Below the pieces are notes generated by a model, which did no database searches, was not told the DNA's origin, and saw only the letters and a program-made list of their open reading frames with translations. Shown here piece after piece: positions 6,001 through 31,695 of a stretch of DNA of 32,000 nucleotides. The position numbers and the translations under genes are program-made. Source of the DNA: Dubosiella newyorkensis (GTDB taxonomy: Bacteria; Bacillota_I; Bacilli_A; Erysipelotrichales; Erysipelotrichaceae); contig NZ_MPKA01000065.1 of assembly GCF_001945605.1 (NCBI RefSeq), forward strand, positions 30,001-62,000, in the 5' to 3' direction. Within the stretch, counting starts at the first letter, position 1; each line of letters opens with the position of its first letter.

Positions 6001-9000
6001 TGGTGTCATGGTTAGGCATTTTATATGTTTTTGTGATGAGCGATGGGCGTTGATCTCCTGCGCTCAGTGGTTTGAGTTTTGTTTCGCTCCAGCCAGCGAA
6101 GACGAGTTGTGGATCGGTGTGTATCGGCTCTTTAGAAAGCGTGATCGTTTCTCCATAAAGATACGTGGATGAGGATGCTTTTATGCTTCCACCGTTCGCG
6201 TCGAACGTAAGTGTGTAAAGACTTTCGTCATAATCTGGAGTCCCGTTCTTGTTTTGATCGATGGCCCATACGGCATAGACGTCTTGATCGCTTGCTGGCA
6301 TCGAATCGATTTGGGTGATGATCCCAGCAGTCTCTTTTTCAGAAAAACTCGTTACTAGTTCTTGTTTTTTCTCTTTGCTCCAGCCAATCAGGACAGCTTG
6401 ATCACGAGTGAAGGTATGAGGGGCGCTCGCGTTAATGTCATCCTCGCTTCCAACAAGCTGGTCAGGTTCAAATAATGTCACAGCTTCCTTTTCAACGTGA
6501 TGATGTCCGCATCGAATGACCATGCCTTTGTCGTTGTTGGAATGGTAGAGGATTGAGTAGCCGGTTTCAGTAAAATCGGCCGATCCGTTGGAGTTTTTAT
6601 CTTCGGCCCATACGGCATAGACTTTATTCTCTCCATCTGTGATTTGAAGTTCGGTAATGATACCGGCTTTTTTCGCTTCAGCGGTCGTTTGAATGTTTTT
6701 TTGATGTTGGGTCTTGCTCCAGCCGATAAAGACGGCATGTTCTTTGGTAAAGCGCAAAGTGCCGTTGGAAGCGTTTTTCAATAGAGCGCATGTTTCTTTA
6801 GCAACATGTTGATGCGAGCAATTTACCGATTCATTGGCTTGTCCATTGTTCGCGTTGTATTGAACTTGATACTTTGTTTCGTTGTAGTCTGGCGTTCCGT
6901 TTTCATTTATATCCATTGCCCAGATGGCGTATAAAACAATGTTTTGTCTTGGCATGGAATAGTTAGAATTGGCTTGCAGGATCTGATTGATAGTTTCTTC
7001 TTTTGTTGACGCATCGAGAGCTTCTACAACCGGAGTTATTCCCCAGCCAACGAAAATCTCTTTAGATTTTCGCTTTAGATTTTTACCTTCTGCTAAATTA
7101 ACAGAAGTTCCTTTCTTCAAATTGGAAACACGTTCCGGTCTAGTGCCAGAACCGCCATTCAAGTCATATGATAAAGTGAACGTTTCGAGAACATCAGCTT
7201 TTCCGTTCGCGTCTTCGTCATAACCCCAAACGGCATAGACAATTTGATCTGCTGGTTTCTTACCATTTGTTGATTCAGGAATCGTGATTTTTTTCTCGGT
7301 CGTAGGCGTTGTATCCGCTTCTTGATAGATTTTTTCGTCCTTCTTTGTCGTCCAGCCGATGAAAACAACTTTTTTACCGTTCACATCGGAGTGGATTGGA
7401 GTTTTAGAGAAATCCAATCCAGCCACGCTTCCTGGAAGATGAAGTGATGCGTTTGGCAAACTCGAAACAATTCCACTTTGTTGAGCATTGCCGTCATACG
7501 ATACTTTGACAAGTTCAGTGTAGTCAGGAATGCCGTTTGCGTTTGTATCTTTAGCCCAGACGGCATATAACGTCACATCGGCAGCATCGATCCAGATTTT
7601 CTCACTTGTAATCAAAATACTCTTCAACTCTTCCACTTCGTTTGCGGAGAAGATTTTATTGCTTTGCGTTCGGCTCCACCCCGCGAAAACGACTTTTTGT
7701 CCATCTAAATCGTCGCGAGTCGGTTTTAGCTCATACGACACAGAAACCTGGGTTCGTTTGGAAATATTCGTTTGAGCTTCAGGTACGGATCCTTTTCCGC
7801 CATTTACGTCATACTTCAATGTATACTTTTCTAAAACATCAGCTTTTCCATTGGCATCTTCATCATAACCCCAAGCCGCGTAAACAACGAGATCTTTGGT
7901 TCCTAGTGTCGCTGCTTTGATCAATTCAGCGGAAGGATCTGAATCCGCTCTTGAATAAATTCCCTTTTTCTCCAAGGACCAGCCAAGGAATACGACTGAT
8001 TTTCCATCAATCGAATCATAGATTGGTTTATCGCTGCTCAATTGAACTTTGGCTTCTGGGAAATGATGATCCGTATCGACAATGTTCCCTTTTCCACCAT
8101 TTAAATCATAAGTAATATGAACCCACTCTTCATAGTCTGGGGTATCGTTGTTGTTGGAATCGAGTGCCCATACAGCATAGACATCTTTTCCGTCAGCTCC
8201 CATCGTTACTTCAGTAACCGTTTTAACACTTTGAGATGTTTCATTCGTTTCTACTAGATCATGTTTAGTTTCGCTCCAGCCTAGGAAAACAACTTCATCT
8301 TTTTCTTCATTAAAATCATAACTAACTTGTTTTCCTTCCGCATTCATACCTTGTACTATTGCGGTTGGAGTTAACCTTACGTCCGGCTCATTTGGCACAT
8401 GATGGTCTAAGCACGAAATCACTTGATCTTCTTTGTCTGGTTTATTCGAATGATATTTTACGTGAACTGAATTATCGTTGTAATCGGGGCTTCCGTTCTT
8501 ATTCGCGTCTTTAGCCCAGACCGCATACAGTGTGATATCCGTTGCCGGCATAGTAAAAGAATCAAAAGAATGGATTATATCTTGAATTTCTTGACTAGTG
8601 TTTTCATTTAAAACATTTGAAATCGGTACTTCGCTCCATCCTACCAACAAGGCCTCTCCTCTTTGAAGGTTCGATCCTTGTCCTAAAGCGAACTGATCGC
8701 CTTCTAAATGTTGTTCTGTTGAAGGAACCGTTCCTCCACTCTTTCCATTTCCATCGAATTGGAGCTTATAGATTTTTTTTACTTCTGCTGTGAAAATTTG
8801 ATTCGAGTCGATCTTCATTTCTTTGACTTCAGAAGCAGTATATTTCTTTTCAGCTCCATCCTGATCCGTTCCGATCCAGTTTCCCGTAAACTTGTATCCT
8901 TCCTCTGGTAAAATGGCAGGAATTTTATTATCCTGTGAAAATTGTTCTCCATGCCAGACGTTTCGAGAAATAGATGTCGTCTCATCCGTACCAATATGCG

Positions 9001-9025
9001 CGTTTGAAGCTTTGAAAGTCACTTG
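1..9025 (-). repeat. tandem in-frame array of ~30 modules (~290-350 nt each) of Listeria-Bacteroides repeat (Flg_new / InlB B-repeat-like) type
   Basis: Each module reads (Y/F)xLxY(D/H/N)xNGGxG ... (V/I/L)F(V/I/A/L)GW(S/T) ... MPxxD(V/I)T(L/V)YA(V/L/A)W. GW codon pairs lie at approx 220, 511, 820, 1110, 1430, 1780, 2060, 2392, 2680, 3000, 3365, 3645, 3960, 4250, 4565, 4910, 5200, 5510, 5790, 6090, 6380, 6720, 7045, 7360, 7680, 7980, 8280 and 8638. The first module (approx 8780-9025) has the canonical GYKFTGNW form. The last module (TFTITYDLNGGSWNDPTTFTYPKG) is cut by the window edge. Confidence 0.85.
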
Positions 9026-12000
9026 ATGCGGTTTCTGGAAACCAATCCAAAGGTTTCGATTTGTATCGGCTTTTCCATCTTTTCCAACTTCGATTGTTGC
9101 GGTCGCGCTCTTTCCATCATCCGAGTGGAATGTTCCATATTCTGAAGAAGTTGGAAGCGAGAATTGCATAGGATCATTGTCGTTGGCATTAGGAGATCCC
9201 GGATTGATTATACGTACCGGATACTTGTCTGCTCGACGGCCCGTCAATTCAAACTTTCCATTTACGGTTGTCGTTTCATGACTTTCATGATCGCCTTGAG
9301 CGATTCCGCTTTCATGAGGCGCTTCCACCTTGACAGGAGTAGTGTAGATTTCATCTATTCCTTCGTTATAGATCCCATTGTAGTTTTTATCCAAAAAAGT
9401 CGTTCCAGCGATGATTCCTGTTTGGAATTCGATTTGAATATGAGGAAGTGGGATATGACCGCCGTTTGTTGCTTCACCAACTGAATAAGGCGCATAACCA
9501 CAAGGACCAAAATTAACGACCTTGCCAACCAACTTGTCATGGTCCACCTGTTTATAGTGAAGGAAAATCTTAATATAGGCATCTTTCGGTATAGCATTTG
9601 CCTTCTGCTCCTGAGTAGTAAGAGCGTCAAGATAATCAGGATCCACGCTAATTCGAATCATCTTCACGTCTTTCCACTCATTATCTTTGATTTCTTCGGC
9701 TGATTTATAATTATTGATGTTGTTGTAGTGGCTCGTATCGCCAATCTTAGCCTTGGAATCAACTGTCGTACTGTATTGAACACGAACTCCTTTATGAGCG
9801 TCTTCTGCAATTCTTGCCGGGCCCGTCATTTCCATATCAAAATCAAATGGATTGTCCTGAACATGACTATCCCAAAAATCTCCTTTTTTCGGAACTGGAA
9901 TAAAATAATAAAACTTTTTCGCATCTTCCTCGGAAAATCCTCTTCCTGTATTATTTCGAATCGTAAAGCGCAAATCGATGTTTTCGTCACTATCCTTTAA
10001 GAAAACTTTTTCCCCTGTATTGTCAAAATTGACATAACCACTGTCTTCATGCCCTTCGGTTCGAGCGCAATCGCAATCCTTTTCATCTGGACATAATTTC
10101 GCATCAAATCCAAATGTCAATCCTTGACGTCCGGCGACAATCGACAACTTGGTATCGGAGGAGTTGATATTAAATGTACTAAAATATTCAGCAGTATCAT
10201 TATCCCCATCCATATCAAAAGTATCTTGCTCTGTGTACAAATTGATCGTCGCACTTCGCGAATCATGATAAGACGGAACATTGGCATCTTTTACGCGAAC
10301 ACAATCCCGCATATCTAACGTCATCGCATCCGCATCTTTCGCGATTTGCATTGTAAACACCATTCGGACACGATACTGGCCTAAATCTTCTGTAAACCAA
10401 CCAATCCATCCTTTTCCCTTAGTAAAAGTAATTTTATATAGATTAAAATTTCCTTTATCTTCTGGATTCGATATTTGATAATCCACATCTCTTTGAAGAA
10501 CAGTCTCTGTGACCGTGCCCGTTTCGATTTCTTCTCCTGTAAGGAAAATCTCATCCGCAGTACTGCCGCTTTCTTGAATCAGCTGAAGATTTTCAATAGA
10601 AATCTTTTTAGGCAATCGGATATAAATGATTGGGCTTGTACTGATATTGATCGTTGTATATGGATAGCCCATCGCGCCAATTTCACAATCGAAATTGACG
10701 TTATTACCCGCTACCGTAGAAGAAGTACTTAAAACTGGTGTACTGACTCGTCTTTCATCCAAAGCATTTTTAATTCCCAACGGAATTCCTTCTCCTTTAT
10801 TTTGAACATCGTTTTGATCGTTTTTAAAATTATCATAAATAACAATGGATGATGTAGCCTCATTGGTCGTATTTCCATCAAACTCCGCTTTATCTTCCTG
10901 ATTGTCTGTCTTTGCCATTTTCAAAGTAGCAAACTCAACATTATCGCCCTCAGAAACATTTAATAGCTTTCCAAATGTCATGGCAAAGCCCGCAGGATCC
11001 AATGGTCTTCCGTTCACGTAGCTTCGATAATCGGTATCATAACTGCCTACATCTGCTATGATATTTGTAAAGTATTCTCCCTCTTCTAAACCAGCTGCTT
11101 TTGCATTGAACAATACGTATCCATTTTCGCTTCTCAACGATGAAATATCTCTTTCTTCTGAATGTTTTGTTGTTGTATATTTTATGTTCACTGTGTTTCC
11201 AATTGTGGCAGGAATACGTTGCGCTACTACACCAATTTTATCGGTATTATTATACGTAAACGTTAACGTCATTGGACTGCTCGCCTGGGTTCCTTTGTTT
11301 ACAACTTGAAATCCACCTAAGTTATAAATAATATTTGAATCAACTTGATTTCCTTTATAAACACCAGGTGTAATATTATTAGCTCCCACATACATTTTTG
11401 CTCCAGTGTTAGCCGTAAAACTTTTCGCTTTAAACTCCCAGTTCGCGATTTGTTTATTACTGTCCGTATCGCTTTGTTGATCCCAATGTTCGACAGTCCC
11501 GACAATCGTAGGTTTCCCTCTTACTATTTCACTCTCTTTTGTATGAAAAGAATCATATACGTTTTCGGTGTTGCCTCGGTCTTCACCCCAATGTATCGTC
11601 GTTCCGGCAGTTGGAGCTTCAGTTTCCCAGAAAAAATATGGTGTAAAAAATTCATCCGATGGAATATAGATATTTTCCCAGGTCAAAGTCACTACCCCTT
11701 TGCCACTCTGATCTTTAGGTTTACTTACAACCGGCTGTTTAGGATCGTACAAACCCAACTGACTTTGGTTACTTGGATTGCTCACACTATATTCGGTTCT
11801 TTTATAAGAAGCGTAGACCCTTTTCCCATCACTTTTTTCGAAATATGGCAAAGAAATATCGAACGTCAATTTTTTAAAAAACATTCCTAAAGAATAGTTT
11901 TCTTTATCTGACCGAAACCAAATTTTTCGAAGTTTAAATTCCTCGTTCAAAGCCGTCGTAAATTGTGTTTTGTCATCTTTCGTGGAAATCATCGGACCGG

Positions 12001-13393
12001 TTTTTAAAGTTCCTGTGTTTGCGGTATTTCCACTTGTAGCATCCAAAACAACTTTCCCCGTAATGATCGGTGTACTTTCAATCTTGTCATATTGATCATC
12101 CGTTTCAACTCTTTCCATATTTTCATTAAGAGTATACGTTTTAATTTGAAGCTTGTTGTTTAAACTTGTATCGATCTTTTTATTCCATAAAGTGGTGTCT
12201 GGAGCCAAAATAATATTAAAGCTCGTGATCTGCGCGGTATGATGAAGTGAATAAACGATCGTGCCCGATCGTGGATGGTAATCTCCATATTTTCCATCGT
12301 TTTGACTTTTTAATCCCGACAAGGAGGCAGGTTCTACCCCTTCCACCTGTCCTTCCGAAGAGTTTGGAGTTGGATATTCTTTCACCACTAGGCCATCAGG
12401 AACGACGATTTCCACTTTTTTGTTTTGCAAATTTAATTCACTTTCCACCTCGATGTGCAAAGTGACTTGCTTGGTATAGTCAATCTTGAAACTGTGATTG
12501 CCGTTATCGTCATTAGTCAAAAGATCTTGTTTGACGTCATTCGCAATACCACCTCTAATTTCCGCCGTTTTGATTGCCATTTTTTTAGAGGTTGCTTCCA
12601 GTACAGAAGTCGAATCTTCATTCCCTTCCGCTAGCGTATTTTGCTTTTCTTTTTTTGATAAATCATTTTCAGTGGTTTCACCTTGATTATTCTCATCGGC
12701 AATAGCGCTACCCTCTTGCTGAGATTCATTTTCCAAGCCTTCTTTTTCTTGCTGTTCCTCTTCCTCCTGCCAGGCTTTCGCTTCCATGAAATCCTGGTAG
12801 GCGTTTGTCACCACGGTATAAAGCTTGGACAATGTTTGCTCGTCGGCTTGTCCGCTCTCCTCGATTTGCCCATCAAGCGCGTTCAGATGGCTGATTATGG
12901 CCTCTTCCTGTTTGAGCACGGCTTCCATAAAACCGTATTCGTCTTCTTCTAGCTGCGTGAGTTCATCCTCGTTCAAGGCGACGTAGGTGTCGTATGCGTG
13001 TTCTATACGCGTATAGACGGCTTGCAGTGGATCATCTTCCGCGCTTTCCTCTTTGAGGATGGCGATGATGTCTGCGATGTTCCTTTGCAAACATGTTATA
13101 CAGCGGTACTGGCACGGGTTCGTGCCGCACTGATCGTTATGTTCCGGATGATGCGCACAAAGGCCTTCCGTATTTTCTCCTTCGCTCCATTCCTTTTGTT
13201 CGATTGGTTCCTCTACAGACTGTTCTTCCACGATAACAGGCTCTTCTTCGCCTTCCTGCGCCCAAACGGGTATATGAATCGTGTTGGTAACGCTCAAAAG
13301 TGCGCAAAGTGATGTGGCAAGGAGTTTTCTTCCCATCGCTATGATCACTTTCCGCTCGTCAGTTCTTTGAAGCTTTTTCTTCTTCATCTTCAT
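1..13393 (-). CDS. giant secreted / cell-surface repeat protein, N-terminal part only (>=4,464 aa; C-terminus lies left of the window)
   Basis: Hand translation of the minus strand, line by line, from ATG 13393 (second ATG at 13387; SD AAAGGAG = plus 13397-13403) down to base 2 met no stop codon. Frame check: the start codon and the Trp codons of the recurring GW motif (first bases 8638, 5200, 2392, 511, 220) are all = 1 mod 3. Every minus-strand ORF the track lists inside 1-13400 starts at a coordinate = 0 or 2 mod 3. The ORF leaves the window, so no stop codon or C-terminal anchor is visible; this is presumably why the track omits it. Confidence 0.9.
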   Translation of the reverse strand, partial: MKMKKKKLQRTDERKVIIAMGRKLLATSLCALLSVTNTIHIPVWAQEGEEEPVIVEEQSVEEPIEQKEWSEGENTEGLCAHHPEHNDQCGTNPCQYRCITCLQRNIADIIAILKEESAEDDPLQAVYTRIEHAYDTYVALNEDELTQLEEDEYGFMEAVLKQEEAIISHLNALDGQIEESGQADEQTLSKLYTVVTNAYQDFMEAKAWQEEEEQQEKEGLENESQQEGSAIADENNQGETTENDLSKKEKQNTLAEGNEDSTSVLEATSKKMAIKTAEIRGGIANDVKQDLLTNDDNGNHSFKIDYTKQVTLHIEVESELNLQNKKVEIVVPDGLVVKEYPTPNSSEGQVEGVEPASLSGLKSQNDGKYGDYHPRSGTIVYSLHHTAQITSFNIILAPDTTLWNKKIDTSLNNKLQIKTYTLNENMERVETDDQYDKIESTPIITGKVVLDATSGNTANTGTLKTGPMISTKDDKTQFTTALNEEFKLRKIWFRSDKENYSLGMFFKKLTFDISLPYFEKSDGKRVYASYKRTEYSVSNPSNQSQLGLYDPKQPVVSKPKDQSGKGVVTLTWENIYIPSDEFFTPYFFWETEAPTAGTTIHWGEDRGNTENVYDSFHTKESEIVRGKPTIVGTVEHWDQQSDTDSNKQIANWEFKAKSFTANTGAKMYVGANNITPGVYKGNQVDSNIIYNLGGFQVVNKGTQASSPMTLTFTYNNTDKIGVVAQRIPATIGNTVNIKYTTTKHSEERDISSLRSENGYVLFNAKAAGLEEGEYFTNIIADVGSYDTDYRSYVNGRPLDPAGFAMTFGKLLNVSEGDNVEFATLKMAKTDNQEDKAEFDGNTTNEATSSIVIYDNFKNDQNDVQNKGEGIPLGIKNALDERRVSTPVLSTSSTVAGNNVNFDCEIGAMGYPYTTINISTSPIIYIRLPKKISIENLQLIQESGSTADEIFLTGEEIETGTVTETVLQRDVDYQISNPEDKGNFNLYKITFTKGKGWIGWFTEDLGQYRVRMVFTMQIAKDADAMTLDMRDCVRVKDANVPSYHDSRSATINLYTEQDTFDMDGDNDTAEYFSTFNINSSDTKLSIVAGRQGLTFGFDAKLCPDEKDCDCARTEGHEDSGYVNFDNTGEKVFLKDSDENIDLRFTIRNNTGRGFSEEDAKKFYYFIPVPKKGDFWDSHVQDNPFDFDMEMTGPARIAEDAHKGVRVQYSTTVDSKAKIGDTSHYNNINNYKSAEEIKDNEWKDVKMIRISVDPDYLDALTTQEQKANAIPKDAYIKIFLHYKQVDHDKLVGKVVNFGPCGYAPYSVGEATNGGHIPLPHIQIEFQTGIIAGTTFLDKNYNGIYNEGIDEIYTTPVKVEAPHESGIAQGDHESHETTTVNGKFELTGRRADKYPVRIINPGSPNANDNDPMQFSLPTSSEYGTFHSDDGKSATATIEVGKDGKADTNRNLWIGFQKPHQVTFKASNAHIGTDETTSISRNVWHGEQFSQDNKIPAILPEEGYKFTGNWIGTDQDGAEKKYTASEVKEMKIDSNQIFTAEVKKIYKLQFDGNGKSGGTVPSTEQHLEGDQFALGQGSNLQRGEALLVGWSEVPISNVLNENTSQEIQDIIHSFDSFTMPATDITLYAVWAKDANKNGSPDYNDNSVHVKYHSNKPDKEDQVISCLDHHVPNEPDVRLTPTAIVQGMNAEGKQVSYDFNEEKDEVVFLGWSETKHDLVETNETSQSVKTVTEVTMGADGKDVYAVWALDSNNNDTPDYEEWVHITYDLNGGKGNIVDTDHHFPEAKVQLSSDKPIYDSIDGKSVVFLGWSLEKKGIYSRADSDPSAELIKAATLGTKDLVVYAAWGYDEDANGKADVLEKYTLKYDVNGGKGSVPEAQTNISKRTQVSVSYELKPTRDDLDGQKVVFAGWSRTQSNKIFSANEVEELKSILITSEKIWIDAADVTLYAVWAKDTNANGIPDYTELVKVSYDGNAQQSGIVSSLPNASLHLPGSVAGLDFSKTPIHSDVNGKKVVFIGWTTKKDEKIYQEADTTPTTEKKITIPESTNGKKPADQIVYAVWGYDEDANGKADVLETFTLSYDLNGGSGTRPERVSNLKKGTSVNLAEGKNLKRKSKEIFVGWGITPVVEALDASTKEETINQILQANSNYSMPRQNIVLYAIWAMDINENGTPDYNETKYQVQYNANNGQANESVNCSHQHVAKETCALLKNASNGTLRFTKEHAVFIGWSKTQHQKNIQTTAEAKKAGIITELQITDGENKVYAVWAEDKNSNGSADFTETGYSILYHSNNDKGMVIRCGHHHVEKEAVTLFEPDQLVGSEDDINASAPHTFTRDQAVLIGWSKEKKQELVTSFSEKETAGIITQIDSMPASDQDVYAVWAIDQNKNGTPDYDESLYTLTFDANGGSIKASSSTYLYGETITLSKEPIHTDPQLVFAGWSETKLKPLSAGDQRPSLITKTYKMPNHDTTLYAVWTKDINRNGIADYLERSLTLNYDGNGSGATINGLPASSKNHVAGEQVELSQEKPSYGIDNVVFLGWSEKKSDSIYRANDPQPTLINTIRFGGKDLTVYAAWGYDSNKDGIADIDTSYIVSYDPNGGTGTIPQPSSHRAQESFTLHNHTNLVRQNCLFVGWSTKKINKVLDEDASPDDINSIIAADDYTMPSHDVTFYAVWAIDSNHNGKPDYADQAVHVRYHANNGTDQTFTCSHHHVVGTEATLFRTAPDGFTKSNALFVGWSLEKHEDIRTKGQLETVKFVESLEMKRSQNNVYAVWVTDSNGDGVADYEALYLVSYSPNGAIGNAPASSSHHEGDIVHIVQQVNELKKDGAIFAGWSETPINQTFSAQADPTLVKQIMTNYTMSMPSRNVTLYAVWAEDQNGDSIPDYGQNAHHVRYHANNGTSDTLECAHHHLEGTKAELVADAMNLYGKLNQSDTNKNHSFTMEDAVFMGWTTIKPESSIQSSEEEIKKYSIVSSITIQKEGNDIYALWAKDINHNGTADFLEHVKVTYEANAKESDVQNMPNDTDIHLPGDTIQLTGKPTCQNIDDTPVVFIGWTKKQNPSIVKRTDTLPQTLEELTFGKKDETVYALWGTDTNNDGTADVFDTYTLTYDLNGGKGIVPKPQNNIAKASNITISSKNDYTRNPKEVFVGWSLQKHKDPLKKSAEVLAPNSLYVMPVKDITLYAVWAQDNNGNGIADFYEKSLTIHYEGNAQNQGVLNNVPSDSTNHIVGETVTLEKKLPTHSAVDGKSIVCLGWSKELTDTIYKREDPLPDLIDQISLSDHDETLYAAWGYDSNHDGRADILDTYQVQYDANGGHGLDLATKKYRANESYTILHPQKTFKKDDLVFAGWSLEKLDTILKVDSNIEILKKLVTDDTPIMPYHDVTYYAVWAKDEDHDGTPDFAQNAAHIYYHANNVEEGEPELVVICPHHHLNGMNAELAQNANALYGSTEKDEHLKNYTFQKENAVFIGWSSQRIDLVDSKEKQQSLHLLDQVVLSTKAKTTNGSDVYAVWAIDTNQNNIPDYEEWIHLTYNANGGKDNSMPVDTKNYFPQANVPLIEEGKMAHRDENESAIVFIGWTSQKEDHIFKREEKAPTTIHTLTLQDKDATVYAAWGYDSNRDGIADVLETYSLAYDLNQGKGKRPESLTGLKKGAAIQLASESLLTRNEDEVFVGWSETQEKNAIEADATKSQLDLIKKPGSAWVVGPDDQILYAVWAKDHNHNGIADYMEKRFTLFYEGNAQNEGTVTSLPTSSKNHILNDRVTLVAKSPEHSDVNGVPVKFIGWSQQKIDHIFEREDPMPSTIQMITFESQDIHVYALWGYDRDGNGKADLLKDYTLSYDLNGKEGTVPSPQTVKAGSKIILEHPQGLKKGDAIFAGWSTEKIDLIVNVDPDIEILKTIVTNDEYMMPSNDVIVYALWAEDLDHNGIPDYAEKAVHISYHSNTGDEEQVVICPHHHIVQTKAVLSSSAQHLYGRTKEDATIKNHSFKKEKALFVGWSKTPQNDIETLEDHAKISQELLDSEIVLEDVNDVYAVWASDRNENGVADHQEFVRLNYDANAKEGLVKNLPESRKQCLPGATIVLEGEPVHEAVDGIQVKFIGWSQEALPILERKDEDPTSLLVQEVKLENHDLTVYAVWGYDTDQNGIADVLETYTLSYHLNGGRGELPTHVDPIKKGEQVSIFDQQAFVRSEDEVFVGWSLQQHEEAVDGKLYEKLKFSDKDLTMPANNVTLYALWAQDANQNGVADFKEMVQLIYNANTNSIGKAHGMPSRSFHLPGDTITLSQKKPTMSVNDGKCVVWIGWSEKALPIYSREDEDPENHLIKEVELIDQDQIVYAVWGYDLDRNGIADVFDTYSVYYDLNGGKGGDQKTQTNVKKGTKITVPNSDDLTRNENEVFAGWSLSKHEQAFGLDQNEELESLRVKEPVTMEAKDLTFYALWKKVDPEKEPTFTITYDLNGGSWNDPTTFTYPKG
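9040..9420 (-). other. SdrD-B / Cna-B-like (prealbumin-fold) domain inside the giant protein
   Basis: GIIAGTTFLDKNYNGIYNEGIDE...HETTTVNGKFELTGRRADKYPVRIINPG...NRNLWIGF resembles the GxIxGxx(W/F)xDxNxNG ... TTxxxGx(Y/F)x(F/L) ... YxV pattern of SdrD B-like repeats. Recognition is by eye only. Confidence 0.5.
13259..13393 (-). other. predicted Sec signal peptide of the giant protein (aa 1-45)
   Basis: Basic n-region MKMKKKKLQRTDERKVIIAMGRK, hydrophobic core LLATSLCALLSV, c-region ending VWA followed by QEGEEE. Starting at Met20 (ATG 13336) would give a more canonical length but has a weaker SD. Confidence 0.6.
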
Positions 13394-13454
13394 AATCTCC
13401 TTTCAACCTATCCATGACTTATCTGAAAATACTTTCTTAAATTCCTTTTTTAAA

Positions 13455-13577: not shown

Positions 13578-15974
13578 TTATTTCGCGACAATATTGACAA
13601 CTTTGCCTTTGACCACGATGATCTTCTTGATCTCTTTGCCCTCGATATGGCGTTTGACCGAATCCAGTCCCAGAGCCTGCTCCTTCAAGCTCTCGTCATC
13701 CGAGCCTTGCTTCGTTTCGAATTTGCCACGCACTTTGCCGTTGACCTGCACGACGATCGTCACATTCTCTTCTTTAAGAGCGTTTTCATCATACGTAGGC
13801 CAAGGCTCATACGCGATCGATTCCTTCGAATCCGTTAAATACTGCCACAACTCTTCGCCAAGATGGGGAGCGAACGCCGAAAACATCTTCACGAACCCTT
13901 CCGCATATGGACGATACAGCTTCTTGCTTTTGTAAGCTTCATTCACGAAAATCATCATCTGCGAAATCGCCGTATTGAAGTTGAGTGTATCGATATCATG
14001 CGAAACCTTCTTCACCGTCTGGTTATAGACTTTATCCAAGCTATGATCGTTGACGTCACTGATTTCAACAGCTCCATGGATCAAACGATCCACCCGGTCC
14101 AGCCATTTTCTCGTTCCGTCCAGACCCGTCGTCGACCAAGGAAGACCCGCTTCCAAAGGACCCATGAACATCTCGTAAACGCGCAAAGCATCCGCCCCAT
14201 GACTTTCCACGATCTCATCCGGATTGACGACATTGCCTCTCGACTTCGACATCTTCTCGCCATTGCTTCCAAGGATCATCCCTTGATGGAACAGTTTTTG
14301 GAAAGGTTCTGGTGTAGGAAGGATTCCTTGATCATATAACACTTTATGCCAGAAACGGCTATACAACAAATGTAAGACCGCATGCTCCGCGCCACCTACA
14401 TACAAATCGACCGGCAGCCAATGTTTCAATAGCTCAGGATCCCCGATCGCCTTGTCGTTATGCGGATCGATATAACGCAAATAATACCAGCAGCTGCCAG
14501 CCCATTGCGGCATCGTATTCGTCTCGCGTACGCCCTTCACACCATCGATCTCCACATGTAAGAAGTCCGGACAATTGGCCAAAGGCGATTCTCCCGTGTC
14601 CGCTGGCTTGAAGTTTTCCGTGGCAGGAAGCTCCAAAGGAAGTTCTTCAACATCGACCGTGCGCATCGTACCATCCTCCATATGGATGATCGGGATCGGC
14701 TCGCCCCAATAGCGCTGTCTAGAAAAGAGCCAGTCTCTTAACTTATATGTCGTCTTTGCTTCGCCAACACCCTTCTCTTCTAGCCACTCGATCATTTTAT
14801 CGATCGCCTCTTGCTTGCCAAGACCATTCAGCCATTCCGAATTGATATGGACACCATCTTCTGTGAACGCTTCCTTTTCGATATCGCCACCCTCCAAAAC
14901 AGGAATGATCGGAAGCCCAAACTCTTTCGCGAACTCATAATCCCGCGTATCGTGAGCAGGAACCGCCATGATCGCACCCGTACCATAGCTTGCAAGAACG
15001 TAATCCGAAATATAGATCGGGATCTTCTTGCCATTGACAGGATTGATCGCATAAGCGCCCGTGAATACACCCGTCTTGTCTTTGTTCAGATCCGTACGCT
15101 CCAGATCCGACTTGCTTTGGCACTCCTTTTGATACGCCTCGACTGCCTCTTTTTGCTTAGGCGTCGTGATATCGCTCACAAAAGGATGTTCCGGAGCCAT
15201 GACACAATACGTCGCTCCAAACAATGTGTCGCAACGCGTCGTGAACACGGTAAACTCTTTATCGTGTCCATCGATCTTGAAGACGACATTCGCGCCCTTC
15301 GATTTACCGATCCAGTTTCGCTGCATTTCCTTTGTCGACTCAGGCCAGTCCACGAGCTCAAGATCATTCAAAAGCTGTTCGGCATAATCCGTGATCTTCA
15401 AGACCCATTGACGCATCGGCTTGCGAATGACAGGATAGCCGCCGCGCTCGCTCTTTCCATCAATGACCTCTTCGTTGGCGAGGACCGCCTTCAATTCAGG
15501 ACACCAATTGACCGGGATCTCATCCACATAGGCAAGCCCCGCATTGTACAATTGAATGAAGATCCACTGCGTCCATTTATAATAGCTCGGATCGCTTGTC
15601 GCGATTTCCCGATCCCAATCGTAGCTGAACCCTAATGATTTGATCTGATCGCGAAAATGATCGATATTCTGCTGGGTGAAGATCGAAGGATGATGACCCG
15701 TCTGGATCGCGAACTGCTCAGCTGGAAGACCAAACGAATCAAACCCCATCGGATGCAGAACGTTGAAACCTTCCATTCTCTTTTTTCGCGCGATAATATC
15801 TGTCGCCGTATAGCCTTCCGGATGCCCTACATGTAATCCATTTCCGCTCGGATATGGAAACATATCCAACACATAATACTTTGGTTTGGAAAAATCCGCC
15901 GTATCGGTCTTGAACGTTTTATTGTCTTCCCAAACTTTTTGCCACTTCTTCTCAATAGTCTTGTGATCGTACAT
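13578..15974 (-). CDS. leuS: leucine--tRNA ligase
   Basis: Track ORF 13578..16076. It contains the class I synthetase HIGH ([14 protein letters not shown]) and KMSKS (EKMSKSRGN) motifs and overall LeuS-like sequence. I place the start at [15 protein letters not shown] (ATG 15974, SD AGAGGT 7 nt upstream). The 34-codon upstream extension runs through the T-box terminator. Confidence 0.97.
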
Positions 15975-16005
15975 CGTATCTACCTCTATTCTCTCTAAAT
16001 AAAAT

Positions 16006-16214
16006 AAAAAAAACGCCCTTAACGATAAGGACGTTTGCACGCGGTACCACCTTACTTCTTGCCAAAAGGCAAGCACTCATTCCCTTTAACGCAAGGATCA
16101 CGGTTTCCATTACGAAACAGCTCCCCGACGAGTTCAAAGCCTTCCAACAAGGATTTTCACCAACCATCCTCTCTCTAGCGAATTCCAGCCTCTACTGCTT
16201 CGGTTCTATACCTG
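16006..16214 (-). promoter_or_regulatory. T-box riboswitch leader (Leu specifier) with intrinsic terminator
   Basis: Minus strand shows AGUAGA and AGAGAG elements, a GGUGAAAAUCC distal-loop-like element, and a specifier context GAA-CUC-G (CUC at 16132-16130, a Leu codon). The conserved T-box sequence AAGGUGGUACCGCG lies at 16053-16040. It is followed by a 10-bp terminator hairpin AACGUCCUUA/UAAGGGCGUU plus a U run (16036-16006). Confidence 0.85.
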
Positions 16215-16220
16215 TCTCAA

Positions 16221-27009: not shown

Positions 27010-27036
27010 TTCAGTATAAGTCGCTTTTCTTTTTTT

Positions 27037-27987
27037 TTAGCTCAGAGTCGATAATGCTCTCATAACGAGATCGATATCTTTATTTTCAAGTTCCTGAATA
27101 ATGTGTAAATAAGTTTTTTGAGTAGTCGTCATGCTGGCATGACCTAATCGTCTTGCTACACTGGCAGTCGATACACCCGCGAACAATAATAAGGATGCAT
27201 GGGTATGACGAAGTCCATGGATCGTAATGACCGGAATATTGGCTTCTTTGCAGTGGCGTTCCAATACATCGTTGACTGTTGAATTGTAAATTTTCTTATT
27301 TACAAATATTGGACGATCTTCGGGAAGACCTTGAATCAAGGATGAAAACTGGACGACAGTTTGCCAATCGATTTGGATCTTTCGAACTGAAGAGTGGTTT
27401 TTCGTGGGTGAAAATCCACCGTTTCCTTTATAATCCCATGTTTTTGATACTGATACTGTTTGATGGGCGAAATCGAAATCTGCTGGAGTGATCGCTAAAG
27501 CTTCTGAGAAGCGCATTCCTGTTTTCGCAACAAGTAGAATAAACCAATCCCATGTGATTTCTTCTTTCAAGTAAAGTGTTGATAATAACGTATGCAGTTC
27601 GTATTGATTCAAATATTTCAGCTTTTTAGGTCGTGGTTGTTTTCCTTTGATGATCGCTTTTCGAGTTGGATCTCTAGGAACCAATCCTTCATCGACCGCA
27701 TCCATGATCGCGCCTTTTAGTTGATGATGAAAGTCCATCGTAGTTTGACGCTCATGTTCGATCGCATACTCGTTTAAAATTTGTTGGTATGTGATCCGAG
27801 ACAAATCACAAAGTTTTAAGTTTGGGGCTAGCTTCCGAATCCACGAAAGACTCATATAATACTTATTCATTGTTACATCTCGGATAGCACCTTTCTTATA
27901 AACTTCGATCCATTTTTCAAAATAATCACAAAACAAAATTGTATTAGTTACTTCATTAATCATTCTTTTTTCTCCATCTTCGTTCAT
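27037..27987 (-). CDS. tyrosine-type site-specific recombinase / integrase
   Basis: The C-terminal catalytic region has the R...HxxR...Y signature: GMRFSEALA (Arg), HGLRHTHASLL (HxxR), RLGHAS and TTQKTYLH (Tyr). The N-terminal SAM-like core-binding domain is FEKWIEVYKKG...TMNKY. The ATG overlaps the stop of the upstream hsdS gene (ATGA). Confidence 0.9.
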   Translation of the reverse strand: MNEDGEKRMINEVTNTILFCDYFEKWIEVYKKGAIRDVTMNKYYMSLSWIRKLAPNLKLCDLSRITYQQILNEYAIEHERQTTMDFHHQLKGAIMDAVDEGLVPRDPTRKAIIKGKQPRPKKLKYLNQYELHTLLSTLYLKEEITWDWFILLVAKTGMRFSEALAITPADFDFAHQTVSVSKTWDYKGNGGFSPTKNHSSVRKIQIDWQTVVQFSSLIQGLPEDRPIFVNKKIYNSTVNDVLERHCKEANIPVITIHGLRHTHASLLLFAGVSTASVARRLGHASMTTTQKTYLHIIQELENKDIDLVMRALSTLS

Positions 27988-28520
27988 TGCGACTTATACT
28001 GATGAAGGGTGATAAGTTTATCAGCATGATACATAAATTGCCCTATATTAAACTGTTCATATTTTTGTTGTGGAATTTTTATTATAAAATTTCTAGCAGT
28101 TACTCCAGTTATTCCCTTTATGGATGATCCTTGAAGATTTAAATTTCCGTTTAAAGTCTTGTAACATAAAAACGTTCCAAATAGAGTATCAATATTTAAA
28201 TTACTAAAGGATATAAAATCTTGACTAGTAGCATAACTATAAGGGAAATATCCAACTTTTCCTACACCAACTCTAGTTACTATTGCTATTGAATTTGCAG
28301 GAACTTGCTTTGAAGCTGAGTTGTTCAAACCATTTTCAGAAATATACTTTTTAGGTTTTATATCAAATAATTTCCCCACCACTAAATCAGATGATTGAAT
28401 CCACGGTAAATTTCCATCCCAATACTTCTTAACTGAAGTTTTTGGAGTACCACCTCCAAAAAACTTATTAGCAATATCTCCCAACCTACGCTGTTCCCAA
28501 GCAGTAACTTTTTGGTAATT
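27984..28520 (-). CDS. hsdS: type I restriction-modification specificity subunit, half-size (single TRD), no ATG start
   Basis: The frame is open from 28520 and reads NYQKVTAWEQRRLGDIANKFFGGGTPKTSVKKYWDGNLPWIQSSDL...EQFNIGQFMYHADKLITLHQYKSQ. This is a typical TRD entry motif (GGGTP...W.G.IPW) and a conserved C-terminal helix. The only start candidate is TTG 28484, which the track prints as M. It could be a silent cassette or the 3' half of a disrupted full-length hsdS. Confidence 0.65.
   Translation of the reverse strand, partial: NYQKVTAWEQRRLGDIANKFFGGGTPKTSVKKYWDGNLPWIQSSDLVVGKLFDIKPKKYISENGLNNSASKQVPANSIAIVTRVGVGKVGYFPYSYATSQDFISFSNLNIDTLFGTFLCYKTLNGNLNLQGSSIKGITGVTARNFIIKIPQQKYEQFNIGQFMYHADKLITLHQYKSQ
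27998..28015. repeat. direct repeat B, copy 1 (ACTGATGAAGGGTGATAA)
   Basis: Exact 18-nt match to 28561-28578. It encodes the ITLHQ helix at the 3' end of the hsdS half-gene. Confidence 0.9.
28483..28503. repeat. direct repeat A, copy 1 (AACCTACGCTGTTCCCAAGCA)
   Basis: Exact 21-nt match to 29034-29054. It encodes AWEQRR at the 5' end of the TRD. Confidence 0.9.
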
Positions 28521-28543
28521 TTAAATTTCACTCACTTATAATT

Positions 28544-29146
28544 TTAATTTTCTAACTTACACTGATGAAGGGTGATAAACTTGTCTATATCCAAAAATAA
28601 ATTCCCGATTTTATTCTGTTCTTCTATACCTGGAATTAGAATAACTTGTTTAAAAAAATCTTCAGGAACTAATTCGTTCATCATAGTGCCAAGTTTAGTA
28701 GATTGATTAAGAATAGGCCTAAATATAGATTCTAAATAGAACAGTTTTTTTGTAAACAAAGGATTGAGCATCGATACTGGCCTAATTGATGAAAAACGAG
28801 GAGACATTAATCCAATACCCCTAGTATTTACAACAAATCTACCATGAGCAAATTGCTTATTAGAATGGCCTTCGAAACCTGCATCTCCTATTCTCAATAC
28901 TTTATAAGACTTAACGGAAGTCTCTGCAGATCCATTTCCATCTTTTTTATATTTCATAGTTGCTACGGACAATGTTTTATCAACTGTTATTCCAATTAAA
29001 TTACGTTCATTATTGATTTTATATAGTTCTCCAAACCTACGCTGTTCCCAAGCATCGTTAAAGCCCTTGAATCGAATTTGAGGAACATTAGACTGTTTTT
29101 GATGGATTTTTGTACTATTTACTTGTTCATTCTTGAATGTTTCCAT
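28544..29146 (-). CDS. hsdS: type I restriction-modification specificity subunit, half-size (single TRD)
   Basis: The N-terminus VPQIRFKGFNDAWEQRRFGELY and the C-terminal conserved region IEEQNKIGNLFLDIDKFITLHQCKLEN are typical HsdS elements. At 200 aa it is about half of a canonical two-TRD HsdS. ATG 29146 lies 2 nt after the hsdM stop. Confidence 0.8.
   Translation of the reverse strand: METFKNEQVNSTKIHQKQSNVPQIRFKGFNDAWEQRRFGELYKINNERNLIGITVDKTLSVATMKYKKDGNGSAETSVKSYKVLRIGDAGFEGHSNKQFAHGRFVVNTRGIGLMSPRFSSIRPVSMLNPLFTKKLFYLESIFRPILNQSTKLGTMMNELVPEDFFKQVILIPGIEEQNKIGNLFLDIDKFITLHQCKLEN
28561..28578. repeat. direct repeat B, copy 2
   Basis: Exact 18-nt match to 27998-28015 in the same orientation, at the 3' end of the first hsdS. 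Confidence 0.9.
29034..29054. repeat. direct repeat A, copy 2
   Basis: Exact 21-nt match to 28483-28503 in the same orientation, near the 5' end of the first hsdS. Confidence 0.9.
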
Positions 29147-29148
29147 AA

Positions 29149-31695
29149 CTAGTACCCTAATAAGCTTTTAAAAGCTTCCAGTCCTTTCATGTCATATTCA
29201 TTTCCTGTTAGATCATCGATCATTTTGGCAAGTTCTTGTTCAGTCTGATGGATTTGATCATCTAAATCATTCAGAGTTTCGCTATATTTATCTTCCAATT
29301 GCTCTAATTGTTTTTTAAGTTTTTCCATTACATTTTGAGGGATTTGAATGAGTTGATCCATTAATGGACTTATCCACTTTTCATAGACGAGCGCCTTAGC
29401 TTCTTCAATTGAAAGAGATTCAAGTTTATCTTTTGTCATAGCATGAATATTTTCCTTGCTTGTTTTGATTTCTTTTTGGATAGCTTTCTGCTCTTTCAAA
29501 AGTTTATTCGCTTCGTTTAATTTCTTAAGCAATTCATCATCATCTTTATCCTTTTTCAATTCTTTAATTCTATTAGTTAAGTTAGAAGTGACGAATTGTG
29601 TTCCTTCCTCATTGGCTAAATTCTCTTTTTCTTCTTCGTCTAAATTTTCAAGAATTTCTTGGATTTCATTATCAATTTGATAAATATGTTGCTCTAACTG
29701 TTCTATTTTTTTGAATTCTTCGGTAAAATATCGTCGTTCGACCAATTCAAATGGAATAATATGACCTTTCCAACCTTCTTGGGTTTCTACGTCTTTTCCA
29801 TTCTTTTTTTTCATCACTAAATTTGGATCGACTTTGGTCAACGCTCTTTCAGATTCATTTTGAATATTTTCCAAATCCCCAAGAATGACTTTCCAGTGAT
29901 TATCTAAAATTTGATATGCCTCATAACGATCGATCAACGAAAACTCTTTTAACTTATGAAATAAAAGATTTCCTAAATCATCTTCTTCTCGATTAAGATC
30001 GACCTCCATCATCCCTTCGATCAAACGCTGTTTTAAATCCGATTCAAACGAGTTAGACTCCTTATAAAAAGCTTTCTTAAACGAGTGAATATCGGAATCT
30101 TCTTCAAAAATCTGTTTTAAATCATTTCCTTTTACACTAACGTACGAGTCGTTCTTTTCATTAAATAGTTTCTTTTTTAGATTTGGGAAATTTTTCCAAT
30201 AGACATCAAATCGAGAAAGTTCCGATTTCGGAATTCCTCCATACATTGAAGCATACAAATCCCATGTTTCCGTAGGTTCAGAAGAATCTACATACCGAGG
30301 AATATTCAAGTTATAGTCATTTGCTCGAATTTCTTCTAAAGAAACAGTTCGTGAAAACTTATCTATTGTCTTTCTAGATACCACTACATCTCGAATTCTT
30401 TTGATATCTGATGCTCGTAAAACATTACTTTTGCCTGATTTCTCAAAATATTTGGAACTATCCACGATTAATACATCGTTATTCTCCCGTTTTTGTCGTA
30501 ATAACATAATAATCGTTGGTATACTCGTCCCATAAAAAATATTCGCAGGAAGACCGATTATCGTATCGATATTATTATTCTCAATCAAGTTTTTTCGAAT
30601 CTCGCCTTCCTCGCCACCACGAAATAATACACCGTGAGGAAGAACGATAGCCATAATGCCATCCGGCTTTATATGATACAAATCGTGTAATAAGAACGCG
30701 TAATCCGCCTTTGTCTTTGGAGCTACTCCATAACGACGATACCGAGGATCGTTTCTTTTCCCTTCCGGATCCCATTTTTGCGAATAAGGGGGATTAGATA
30801 CCACAGCATCCACATATAGTGGCATTCCTAACTTTGTTTCATTAGGTGGCCAATCATCTTCCAAAGTATCAGCATTTCGAGTAAAGATATTGCTCGGCTT
30901 GATTCCACGCATGATCAAGTTCATCCGCGTTAAGTTATATGTATTTCGCTTCAATTCTTGGGCATAATACTGAATTCGATCTTTGCTTTCTAGATATCGC
31001 GAAGCACTTTCTCCAATATTCAACAACAAAGAACCTGACCCACTCGTCGGGTCGTATATTTTAATTTCTTTTCGATCTTTTAAATGGTTCGCGACCAAGT
31101 CAGACATCAACACTGAAACTTCATGCGGTGTATAGAACTCACCAGCCTTCTTTCCAGCATTCGCGGCGAACATTCCAATTAAATACTCATAAACAAAACC
31201 AAGCACATCATAGTCCTGCTTACTATCCATTGGAATGTCCTTGATCAGTTGCAATAAATTAATGATCGCTTTCGTTTGAGATTGAGCACTATCTCCTAAT
31301 TTACTCAATCCCGTTTCCAAAGTTTCAAAAATTCCATCAAACACATCGCGATGTGTATTTGAAATCAAACGACTAAAGGCAGACAATGCTTCACGTACAT
31401 TTGAAACATCAAATTCCTTTTCATGTTCGATCCAAGTAGAAAACAAATTAGGATAACTAATAAAATATCCCAGACGATCTTGAATATATCGAACCGTTTC
31501 CTGATCTTCTTCAGTCACCAATGGTAACGTTTCTTCATCCCATCCATCATTAATCAGAAGTTTTAATTCCTGCTCTGACAAGTATTTGTAAAAAATAAAC
31601 CCTAGAATATAATCTTTATACTCACTTGCCTCGATTTTAGAACGCATCTGGTTTGCCGATTCCCATATTTTGGCAGCCAATTGCTGTTTATTCAT
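29149..31695 (-). CDS. hsdM: type I restriction-modification DNA methyltransferase subunit M, long form (~848 aa)
   Basis: HsdM N-terminal domain (LAAKIWESANQMRSKIEASEYKDYILGFIFYKYLSE), AdoMet motif I (IYDPTSGSGSLL) and catalytic motif IV (VVSNPPYSQKW). I place the start at ATG 31695 (GGAGGA 7 nt upstream). The track start at 31710 is a TTG. Confidence 0.9.
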   Translation of the reverse strand: MNKQQLAAKIWESANQMRSKIEASEYKDYILGFIFYKYLSEQELKLLINDGWDEETLPLVTEEDQETVRYIQDRLGYFISYPNLFSTWIEHEKEFDVSNVREALSAFSRLISNTHRDVFDGIFETLETGLSKLGDSAQSQTKAIINLLQLIKDIPMDSKQDYDVLGFVYEYLIGMFAANAGKKAGEFYTPHEVSVLMSDLVANHLKDRKEIKIYDPTSGSGSLLLNIGESASRYLESKDRIQYYAQELKRNTYNLTRMNLIMRGIKPSNIFTRNADTLEDDWPPNETKLGMPLYVDAVVSNPPYSQKWDPEGKRNDPRYRRYGVAPKTKADYAFLLHDLYHIKPDGIMAIVLPHGVLFRGGEEGEIRKNLIENNNIDTIIGLPANIFYGTSIPTIIMLLRQKRENNDVLIVDSSKYFEKSGKSNVLRASDIKRIRDVVVSRKTIDKFSRTVSLEEIRANDYNLNIPRYVDSSEPTETWDLYASMYGGIPKSELSRFDVYWKNFPNLKKKLFNEKNDSYVSVKGNDLKQIFEEDSDIHSFKKAFYKESNSFESDLKQRLIEGMMEVDLNREEDDLGNLLFHKLKEFSLIDRYEAYQILDNHWKVILGDLENIQNESERALTKVDPNLVMKKKNGKDVETQEGWKGHIIPFELVERRYFTEEFKKIEQLEQHIYQIDNEIQEILENLDEEEKENLANEEGTQFVTSNLTNRIKELKKDKDDDELLKKLNEANKLLKEQKAIQKEIKTSKENIHAMTKDKLESLSIEEAKALVYEKWISPLMDQLIQIPQNVMEKLKKQLEQLEDKYSETLNDLDDQIHQTEQELAKMIDDLTGNEYDMKGLEAFKSLLGY

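Follow-up and report, generated by a model that had tools for sequence, protein, structure and literature searches.

We identified, in a 32,000-nt stretch of the Dubosiella newyorkensis genome (contig NZ_MPKA01000065.1; hereafter, the window), a shortened type I restriction-modification (R-M) locus in which the target recognition domains (TRDs) of the specificity subunit HsdS lie between two short repeats, R1 and R2, present in direct rather than inverted orientation. Across about 25 contigs of the species, these TRD cassettes occupy modular slots and are permuted among near-identical strains, with crossovers confined to narrow stretches within the repeats; short forms of the locus lacking hsdR were found as well, and the repeat sites are conserved in related loci at the level of the DNA. 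We interpret R1 and R2 as the 5′ and 3′ borders of modular TRD cassettes in a type IC-like R-M island. The cassettes adjoin a tyrosine recombinase gene (int), the product of which is the likely catalyst of a process in which circles would be excised and re-integrated and switching might take place inside a clone.

Repeats, cassettes and short forms in Dubosiella newyorkensis

R1 (21 nt, AACCTACGCTGTTCCCAAGCA) is present in two exact copies in the window, at 28483-28503 and 29034-29054, and R2 (18 nt, ACTGATGAAGGGTGATAA) in two, at 27998-28015 and 28561-28578. The copies of each repeat are co-directional, as stated in an earlier note on this DNA, and chance accounts for practically none of these matches (0.00 copies of R1 and 0.02 of R2 expected in shuffled sequences). 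No further copy of either repeat with up to three mismatches was detected on either strand of the window and, at the same tolerance, no inverted R1 or R2, so that the locus does not have the makeup of a classical inverton. The similarity reaches 27 nt with one mismatch for R1, and 24 nt with one mismatch or 67 nt at 72% identity for R2; CAGCGTA(A/G)G is a core common to both (CAGCGTAAGT in relatives). The borders are not palindromic, and inspection by eye revealed no convincing dyad symmetry in either repeat. The segments between the repeats, of 455 nt (28579-29033) and 467 nt (28016-28482), are ~31% identical and hence unrelated, in agreement with the same note, which had also placed a tyrosine recombinase gene beside them; this gene lies at 27037-27987. 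The parts of the locus are as follows:

29149-31695, minus strand: hsdM, 848 aa (HsdM_N and N6_Mtase, then a C-terminal extension of ~360 aa; Pfam, TIGR00497)
29055-29146, minus strand: fixed N-terminal leader of hsdS, the slot 1 context, with ATG at 29146 (precedes cassette A, B, C or F in other contigs)
28544-29146, minus strand: single-TRD hsdS, 200 aa
29034-29054 (extended, 29028-29054), minus strand: R1 copy 1, the 5′ cassette border, encoding AWEQRR (repeat search)
28579-29033, minus strand: TRD cassette A, 455 nt (copies of 99.8-100% identity occupy each of the four slots in other contigs)
28561-28578 (extended, 28555-28578), minus strand: R2 copy 1, the 3′ cassette border, encoding ITLHQ (repeat search)
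28504-28560, minus strand: 57-nt silent-array spacer, source of the premature CKLEN-stop ending of the window hsdS (identical in other contigs)
28483-28503 (extended, 28477-28503), minus strand: R1 copy 2, preceding the start-less cassette (repeat search)
28016-28482, minus strand: TRD cassette B, 467 nt, in the silent slot adjoining the recombinase gene (Pfam Methylase_S, E = 7.7e-16)
27984-28484, minus strand: second TRD segment
27998-28015 (extended, 27992-28015), minus strand: R2 copy 2 (repeat search)
27989-28002, no strand: left arm of an inverted repeat, 14 nt, comprising the 3′ part of the last R2 and the junction (perfect pair)
27037-27987, minus strand: tyrosine recombinase gene, 316 aa from the first ATG (Pfam Phage_integrase, E = 9.8e-21)
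27011-27024, no strand: right arm of the inverted repeat, an inverted R2-core remnant 13 nt past the recombinase stop (perfect pair)

The ~25 contigs of the same species were obtained from exact-sequence look-ups of the recombinase and HsdM. They share one chromosomal site, with an abhydrolase gene on one side and DUF1643, gcpE and PBP genes on the other, and with flanks 98.4-100% identical to the window; one HsdS allele of the locus carries the NCBI annotation Dubosiella newyorkensis. The order of the intact locus is hsdM-[slot 1][slot 2]-fic-hsdR-terminator-[silent 1][silent 2]-int, where fic encodes 207 aa and hsdR 1040 aa with an EcoR124_C domain (the 1040-aa HsdR was found in contigs L001, L006, L091, L100, L103 and L104). 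Intact hsdS is a single ordinary full-length gene, leader-R1-[slot 1]-R2-central helix-R1-[slot 2]-R2-C-terminal helix, and the silent array reads R1′-[silent 1]-R2-57-nt spacer-R1-[silent 2]-R2, followed by the recombinase gene. An identical 57-nt spacer separates silent 1 from silent 2 in L001, L002, L004-L006, L091, L100 and L104.

The slot contexts are constant across contigs and the cassettes vary. Seven cassette types were distinguished (A, 455 nt; B, 467; C, 512; D, 461; E, 482; F, 479; G, ~475), copies of the same type being 99.6-100% identical. Every cassette carries R1 and R2 in frame, so that any cassette fits any of the four slots, either half of hsdS included. Written as (slot 1,slot 2/silent 1,silent 2), the orders found are:

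(A,C/D,B): L100, L101
(B,A/C,D): L006
(B,D/C,A): L104 plus 10 similar places, L001
(A,A/A,B): L091/L105
(/B,C): L002
(/A,C): L004, L005, L107
(A,E/..): L102
(F,E/F,G): L103

These amount to at least six different permutations, with all cassettes in direct orientation and int never flipped in the ~25 contigs. Cassettes A-D were each seen in three or four different slots in unchanged orientation; cassette B, for instance, occupies slot 1 of L006 and L104 and silent 1 of L002. L008 and L100 show 0 mismatches in 3,083 nt downstream, yet have C and B, respectively, adjoining the recombinase gene, and L002 and L005 show 7 differences in 3,400 nt, yet carry B and A in silent 1. The comparison of related strains put forward in the earlier note thus shows that one cassette, with at least 99.6% identity between its copies, can occupy different slots where the strain backgrounds are nearly the same. 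Recombination at the repeats, which the note expected to delete or excise a cassette, both moves and deletes cassettes, as supported by these permutations and by the single-cassette deletion forms described below. The changes in cassette position were observed between samples, not inside one clone. Four distinct cassettes leave no repeat longer than ~27 nt in the locus; hence, such orders are not assembly ambiguities.

Sequence variants within the repeats locate the exchanges. The post-hsdR slot invariably keeps the TA variant with which its R1 begins, and each slot likewise keeps its final base of R2 (C or T), whereas the R2-start variants TTATTACC (cassette D) and TCATCACC (cassette F) travel with their own cassettes. 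The crossovers must accordingly fall within no more than 19 nt of R1 and 12 nt of R2, and windows of 12-19 nt are short for RecA-dependent exchange. As derived from the order of the sites, the change from (B,A/C,D) to (B,D/C,A) fits exactly an excision between R1 of slot 2 and R1 of silent 2 followed by re-integration at R2.

Four contigs, including the window, lack fic and hsdR. Their arrangements are:

window, after hsdM: leader-A-spacer-B-int
L106, a 52-kb contig: leader-F-spacer-E-int
L003 and L114, from two independent data sets, a Logan assembly (k=31 contig) and a JGI assembly: leader-C-int

The last of these is the deletion predicted in the earlier note, in which the 5′ leader of hsdS is fused to the cassette adjoining the recombinase gene. 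The window is 100.000% identical to assembly GCA_041448535.1 over 10,016 nt and 99.97% identical over 3,446 nt, where the one mismatch is consistent with the slot-linked final R2 base, and the sole other difference from this assembly is that it lacks exactly the 4,995 bp between the slot 1 and silent 1 copies of cassette A. Given this identity and the missing segment, the window represents a derived state of the (A,A/A,B) locus. The short form could be either a true deletion, that is, an excised state, or an assembler collapse of the ~500-nt triplicated repeat.

The hsdS of the window ends in ITLHQCKLEN-stop, ten residues into a long conserved helix (intact alleles read ITLHQRKVEKLKKVKASLLEKMFV there), and lacks the conserved C-terminal helix (RKVEKLKKVKASLLEKMFV follows ITLHQ in full-length alleles). 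The window therefore does not encode a complete HsdS, which would have two TRDs and a pair of conserved helices; such a protein is present, as a 413-aa hsdS, in a sister assembly with zero single-nucleotide polymorphisms (SNPs) (L091). The exact 200-aa HsdS product of the window is recorded nowhere else, and no hsdR was found in the 32 kb. The earlier note had R1 encode AWEQRR in both places, which is true of the upstream copy; the downstream copy is untranslated, as it sits in frame just past a stop and ahead of the only possible start (TTG, 28484), leaving the downstream cassette start-less. The window copy is probably inactive, given the truncated helix and the lack of hsdR, and, whichever of the two explanations of the short form holds, the two half hsdS genes do not represent the arrangement in which the system functions. 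A search for a protein identical to the full-length A-A HsdS gave no match, so that the expressed gene is rarely assembled intact.

The methyltransferase subunit is a type I HsdM (N6_Mtase, E = 2.5e-102, and HsdM_N in Pfam; 318 bits with TIGR00497 against a cut-off of 243), and its 848-aa product is on record in 12 contigs. A TTG start giving 853 aa was considered and discarded, as the look-up was empty; the real product has 848 aa. Residues 1-485 are normal, and the Lys/Glu-rich extension of ~360 aa (29149-30240, minus strand) resembles a coiled coil and matches no Pfam family above threshold; a long HsdM is common to many relatives, and others have the usual ~500-530 aa.

Several further observations concern the locus and its surroundings. 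Downstream of the hsdR stop, and ahead of the first silent cassette, comes a strong terminator-like hairpin (L091, 14601-14625), with the silent cassettes and int behind it; the window short form is without that terminator, and recombinase expression could rise as a result. A promoter-like site (28729-28756, minus strand; TTTACA-16-TAGAAT, 10/12 matches) lies within cassette A in the sense direction and hence travels with it; taken overall, promoter-like matches do not exceed their frequency in shuffled sequence. The island has a G+C content of 30-39% versus 45-49% in its surroundings. Elsewhere in the window, an open reading frame (ORF) of at least 4,467 codons (2-13402, minus strand), with a signal-peptide-like N-terminus, runs past the window start and presumably encodes a giant surface protein, and a T-box leader (16024-16217, minus strand; 113.5 bits against a gathering score of 93) is located directly upstream of an 832-aa ORF (13578-16076).

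The recombinase, its probable sites and its relatives

The recombinase resembles phage/Tn916-type integrases and contains the tyrosine-recombinase motifs R159, H257-x-x-R260, H283 and Y293. A start at ATG 27963, preceded by a GGAGA ribosome-binding site and yielding 308 aa, is likelier than that of the 316-aa form; the contig collection has 40 blocks indexed with the 316-aa product and 91 with the 308-aa one. Within the species, the gene is 100% conserved and its distance to the R2 site is always fixed. More than 540 relatives at 73-81% identity were found in gut Firmicutes and other phyla, nearly all of them adjoining type I R-M genes.

In these relatives, the sites are conserved beyond what the encoded protein would demand. 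The residues W-E-Q-R-K are encoded as TGG GAA CAG CGT AAG in 95-100% of cases (46-57 related loci), and L-H-Q-R-K is encoded near-invariantly as CTT CAT CAG CGT AAG; CGT was used in 98/103 cases against a background of 21%, and AAG in 99/103 against 42%. Such near-invariant codons point to selection on the DNA itself and define the common core of R1 and R2 as CAGCGTAAG. The loci that hold these codon-invariant sites have recombinases of only ~75% amino-acid identity. R1/R2-like sites are present in most of 80 relatives, and in ~20 of the 80 an R2 core lies ~25-45 nt upstream of the recombinase gene.

The layout of the sites differs among relatives. In L047, L085 (Peptostreptococcus porci) and L045 (Bovifimicola), four or five cassettes form arrays that are entirely direct and free of inverted repeats, and in-frame hsdS genes with three TRDs (~600 aa) adjoin the same recombinase family in L123 (8001-9803) and P0241, two of the three TRDs being identical in the latter; these genes look like tandem cassette insertions at direct repeats. 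The classical convergent hsdS-int-hsdS layout is seen in L043, L060 and L075, as well as in Listeria innocua (L124), where a recombinase of 63% identity lies between convergent hsdS genes and the R1 sequence (GCTTGGGAACAGCGTAAG, AGCTTGGGAACAGCGTAAG) forms a perfect 19-nt inverted repeat. One enzyme family and one site sequence thus occur in an inverted arrangement in some genomes and in a direct one in others. Tyrosine recombinases such as Cre catalyze inversion between inverted sites, and excision or integration between direct ones. The same dependence of the outcome on site orientation has been noted for hsdS systems (PMC7672463).

In the window, the one inverted element related to the repeats is a perfect pair of 14 nt (TCAGTATAAGTCGC), with an arm on either side of the recombinase gene. 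Inverted repeats of 11 nt or more surround int in 45/69 relatives versus 1/69 shuffled controls; they mostly contain the R2 core (ATCAGCGTAAGC...) and are found even where no inverted hsdS follows. No flipped recombinase gene was detected among the contigs. This inverted repeat may be a vestige of an ancestral inverton, or else a switch through which the gene regulates itself.

Proposed mechanism and alternatives

We propose that the recombinase acts on pairs of R1 or pairs of R2, which share the core. With all sites co-directional, the same chemistry that inverts segments elsewhere would give excision and integration here, releasing a circle on which fic and hsdR would usually be found together with one to three cassettes. 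Two cassettes would be swapped if the circle re-integrated via the other type of repeat; without re-integration, a short locus lacking hsdR would remain. Circles are predicted to have the junction hsdR-terminator-TAC-R1-[cassette]-R2-C-GTAAGTGTGATCAG in the central context and spacer-R1-[cassette]-R2-GTAAAGTTG in the C-terminal context. Taken together, the data make such recombinase-driven excision and re-integration a rather probable mechanism for this family of loci.

Several points weigh against this mechanism. Neither a circular product nor the circle-specific junction (post-hsdR context, cassette, central context) was detected among the assembled contigs, to which the search was limited, and a metagenome scan with the R1 pattern recovered 12 loci, three of them from this species, and 0 circle-type junctions. 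The variants stem from separate samples and might represent distinct strains. Contigs ending at R1 or R2 (L007-L010, L092-L097) were considered as signs of mixed populations and dismissed: shared 30-mers (GA+R1+TGGAGAA, or cassette A in several contexts) break the k=31 contigs of a single genome, so that such breaks in Logan assemblies reflect k-mer sharing and are not evidence of mixture. The duplicated cassettes in (A,A/A,B) and (F,E/F,G) are not made by simple intramolecular cut-and-paste, and sister-chromosome exchange or gene conversion would be needed. The recombinase gene lies outside the excised segment, in contrast to tvrR of the pneumococcal tvr locus, and its action on R1 and R2 is predicted. 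Finally, the window short form can be explained without a recombinase, through RecA-dependent deletion or assembly collapse across the ~500-nt duplication of cassette A.

The last point bears on the window rather than on the family. Assembly collapse across the triplicated cassette A, with the real genome having the full locus of GCA_041448535.1, is a strong contender for the window arrangement, although we would not call it the probable one: there are zero SNPs on both sides, the missing 4,995 bp are bounded by exact repeats of ~500 nt, a classic setting for collapse, and the exact 200-aa hsdS product of the window has no other record. However, short forms that need no duplicated cassette exist in independent assemblies (L003, L114, L106), a shortened locus of the same kind arises for real at tvr, and conservative assemblers normally break at such repeats instead of joining across them. 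The broader alternative is homologous recombination or gene conversion, combined with strain-to-strain transfer, through the conserved segments of hsdS, the recombinase being irrelevant or left over from an inversion system. The duplicated cassettes ((A,A/A,B) in L091, F twice in L103) have the look of copy-and-paste, the ~500-nt duplication of A is a good RecA substrate for the window deletion, all variants come from different samples, and tvr also showed TvrR-independent and RecA-independent excision (PMC6265443). Nevertheless, we regard this explanation as unlikely, considering that the exchange windows span just 12-19 nt, that site nucleotides are conserved far beyond codon usage next to recombinases of ~75% identity, that the recombinase is fully conserved in the species at a fixed distance from the R2 site, and that its relatives sit in invertons that use the same R1 sequence.

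Plain gene decay, whereby the repeats would mirror the two-fold symmetry of a former full-length hsdS and have no role in recombination, was the alternative raised in the earlier note. Part of it stands: R1 and R2 do flank both TRD1 and TRD2 of the intact hsdS, and the window copy, truncated and without hsdR, is derived and shortened. Decay, however, is contradicted by the permutations and leaves unexplained the identical cassettes in different slots of near-identical strains, the retention of start-less cassettes with the same borders behind a terminator, and the codon-level invariance, so that we consider it very improbable as the whole account. Scarcely any weight remains for a classical inverton with a missed inverted partner: the recombinase does belong to the classical inverton family and a 14-nt inverted remnant of the R2 core flanks int, but the 32 kb contain no inverted R1 or R2 with up to three mismatches, the cassettes are co-directional in all ~25 contigs of the species, and int is never flipped.

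More tentatively, and with somewhat less confidence than doubt, excision and re-integration by the recombinase might be part of an active system, widespread in gut Firmicutes, that arose independently of tvr and parallels it. In such a system, an inverton-type recombinase acting on direct sites would paste up to seven "universal" cassettes into either half of hsdS, the circle with hsdR and fic would also switch restriction off, and int, bracketed by inverted site cores, could flip or regulate its own gene. If active, such loci would diversify the methylomes and phage defences of abundant gut commensals of mouse and human, and would explain fragmented or collapsed assemblies of these regions. 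As a caution, half hsdS genes beside an integrase gene may be what is left of a larger locus after shortening or collapse.

Comparison with known systems

To our knowledge, only one R-M switch based on excision and re-integration has been studied, namely, the pneumococcal tvr. In this locus (SpnIV) of Streptococcus pneumoniae, TRD-encoding sequences are shuffled through TvrR-dependent excision of circles and their re-integration (Kwun et al. 2018, PMC6265443). The tvr repeats are direct repeats of ~18 bp and ~70 bp that share a core of ~11 bp, the recombinase is restrained by an attenuator, which precedes tvrR, and by a Doc-type toxin gene, and loss of the circle leaves a shortened locus (PMC6265443). 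The view in the earlier note that the direct-repeat topology would be essentially undescribed is therefore not tenable: tvr already excises and re-integrates on two kinds of direct repeat (PMC6265443), and Huang et al. 2020 flagged one further direct-repeat hsdS locus and considered a minority of systems to be probably of the excision type (PMC7672463).

The locus described here resembles tvr in being a type I R-M locus with several TRD cassettes in one orientation, in its two kinds of direct repeat that share a short core, in combining a tyrosine recombinase with a Fic/Doc-fold gene and a terminator-like element ahead of the recombinase, in the variation of cassette order between isolates or otherwise identical genomes (here, between samples), and in the shortened locus that results once the excised part is lost. 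The components, in contrast, are different. The window recombinase and TvrR of the pneumococcal locus L098 align with 23% identity over 147 aa (pairwise E = 1e-6), and orthology was rejected: the former is phage/Tn916-integrase-like and the latter Xer-like (Phage_int_SAM_1/4). The HsdM proteins are 27% identical, HsdR has EcoR124_C here and EcoEI_R_C in tvr, the TRD proteins of tvr belong to a different hsdS family, TvrT and Fic are similar at the fold level only, and a Phd-like antitoxin is absent here. Furthermore, N-terminal and C-terminal cassettes form separate classes in tvr, the first being immobile, whereas here each cassette has both types of border and can occupy any slot; and the tvr circle carries tvrATR, whereas here the recombinase gene lies outside and the excisable segment holds fic and hsdR.

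The recombinase finds its closest counterparts among the hsdS invertons of the EfiA, Listeria and L. salivarius type (PMC7672463). Plasmid-borne and chromosomal copies in Enterococcus, Listeria, Ligilactobacillus and Mycoplasmopsis are 55-66% identical to it, and we infer that it belongs to "clade 4" of Huang et al. The hsdS family and the R1 sequence GCTTGGGAACAGCGTAAG are shared with classical invertons, as is the position of the recombinase gene directly after the 3′ end of hsdS. The difference lies in the architecture, with convergent hsdS genes, inverted repeats and inversion in the former (L124) and exclusively direct copies here. Integrons are likewise promoterless, one-orientation cassette arrays beside a tyrosine recombinase gene, with movement expected to proceed via circles. 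However, neither attC-type imperfect palindromes nor an attI/Pc arrangement are present here, the cassettes are in-frame protein domains instead of whole genes, and the window recombinase is not an IntI-type integrase (TIGR02249, 44 bits against a cut-off of 265; PRK15417, 34 bits against 435).

Reshuffling of HsdS domains is known in Lactococcus lactis, where new specificities arise from recombination in conserved hsdS regions, through homologous recombination between plasmid and chromosome. Half-size HsdS proteins of EcoDXXI and EcoR124, with a single TRD, can work as homodimers, and the engineered truncations keep the conserved helix; the single-TRD product of the window, in contrast, is without it.

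To conclude, the locus would work like tvr and yet lies outside its family, its recombinase joining the Listeria, Enterococcus and L. salivarius inverton family. Surveys of phase-variable type I systems searched for inverted repeats. Judging from this locus and its many relatives in the Clostridia and Erysipelotrichia of the gut, cassette arrays on direct repeats may be a common class that those surveys would largely have overlooked. Next to tvr, these loci represent a second way of shuffling hsdS cassettes on direct repeats, built from non-orthologous parts and apparently widespread.

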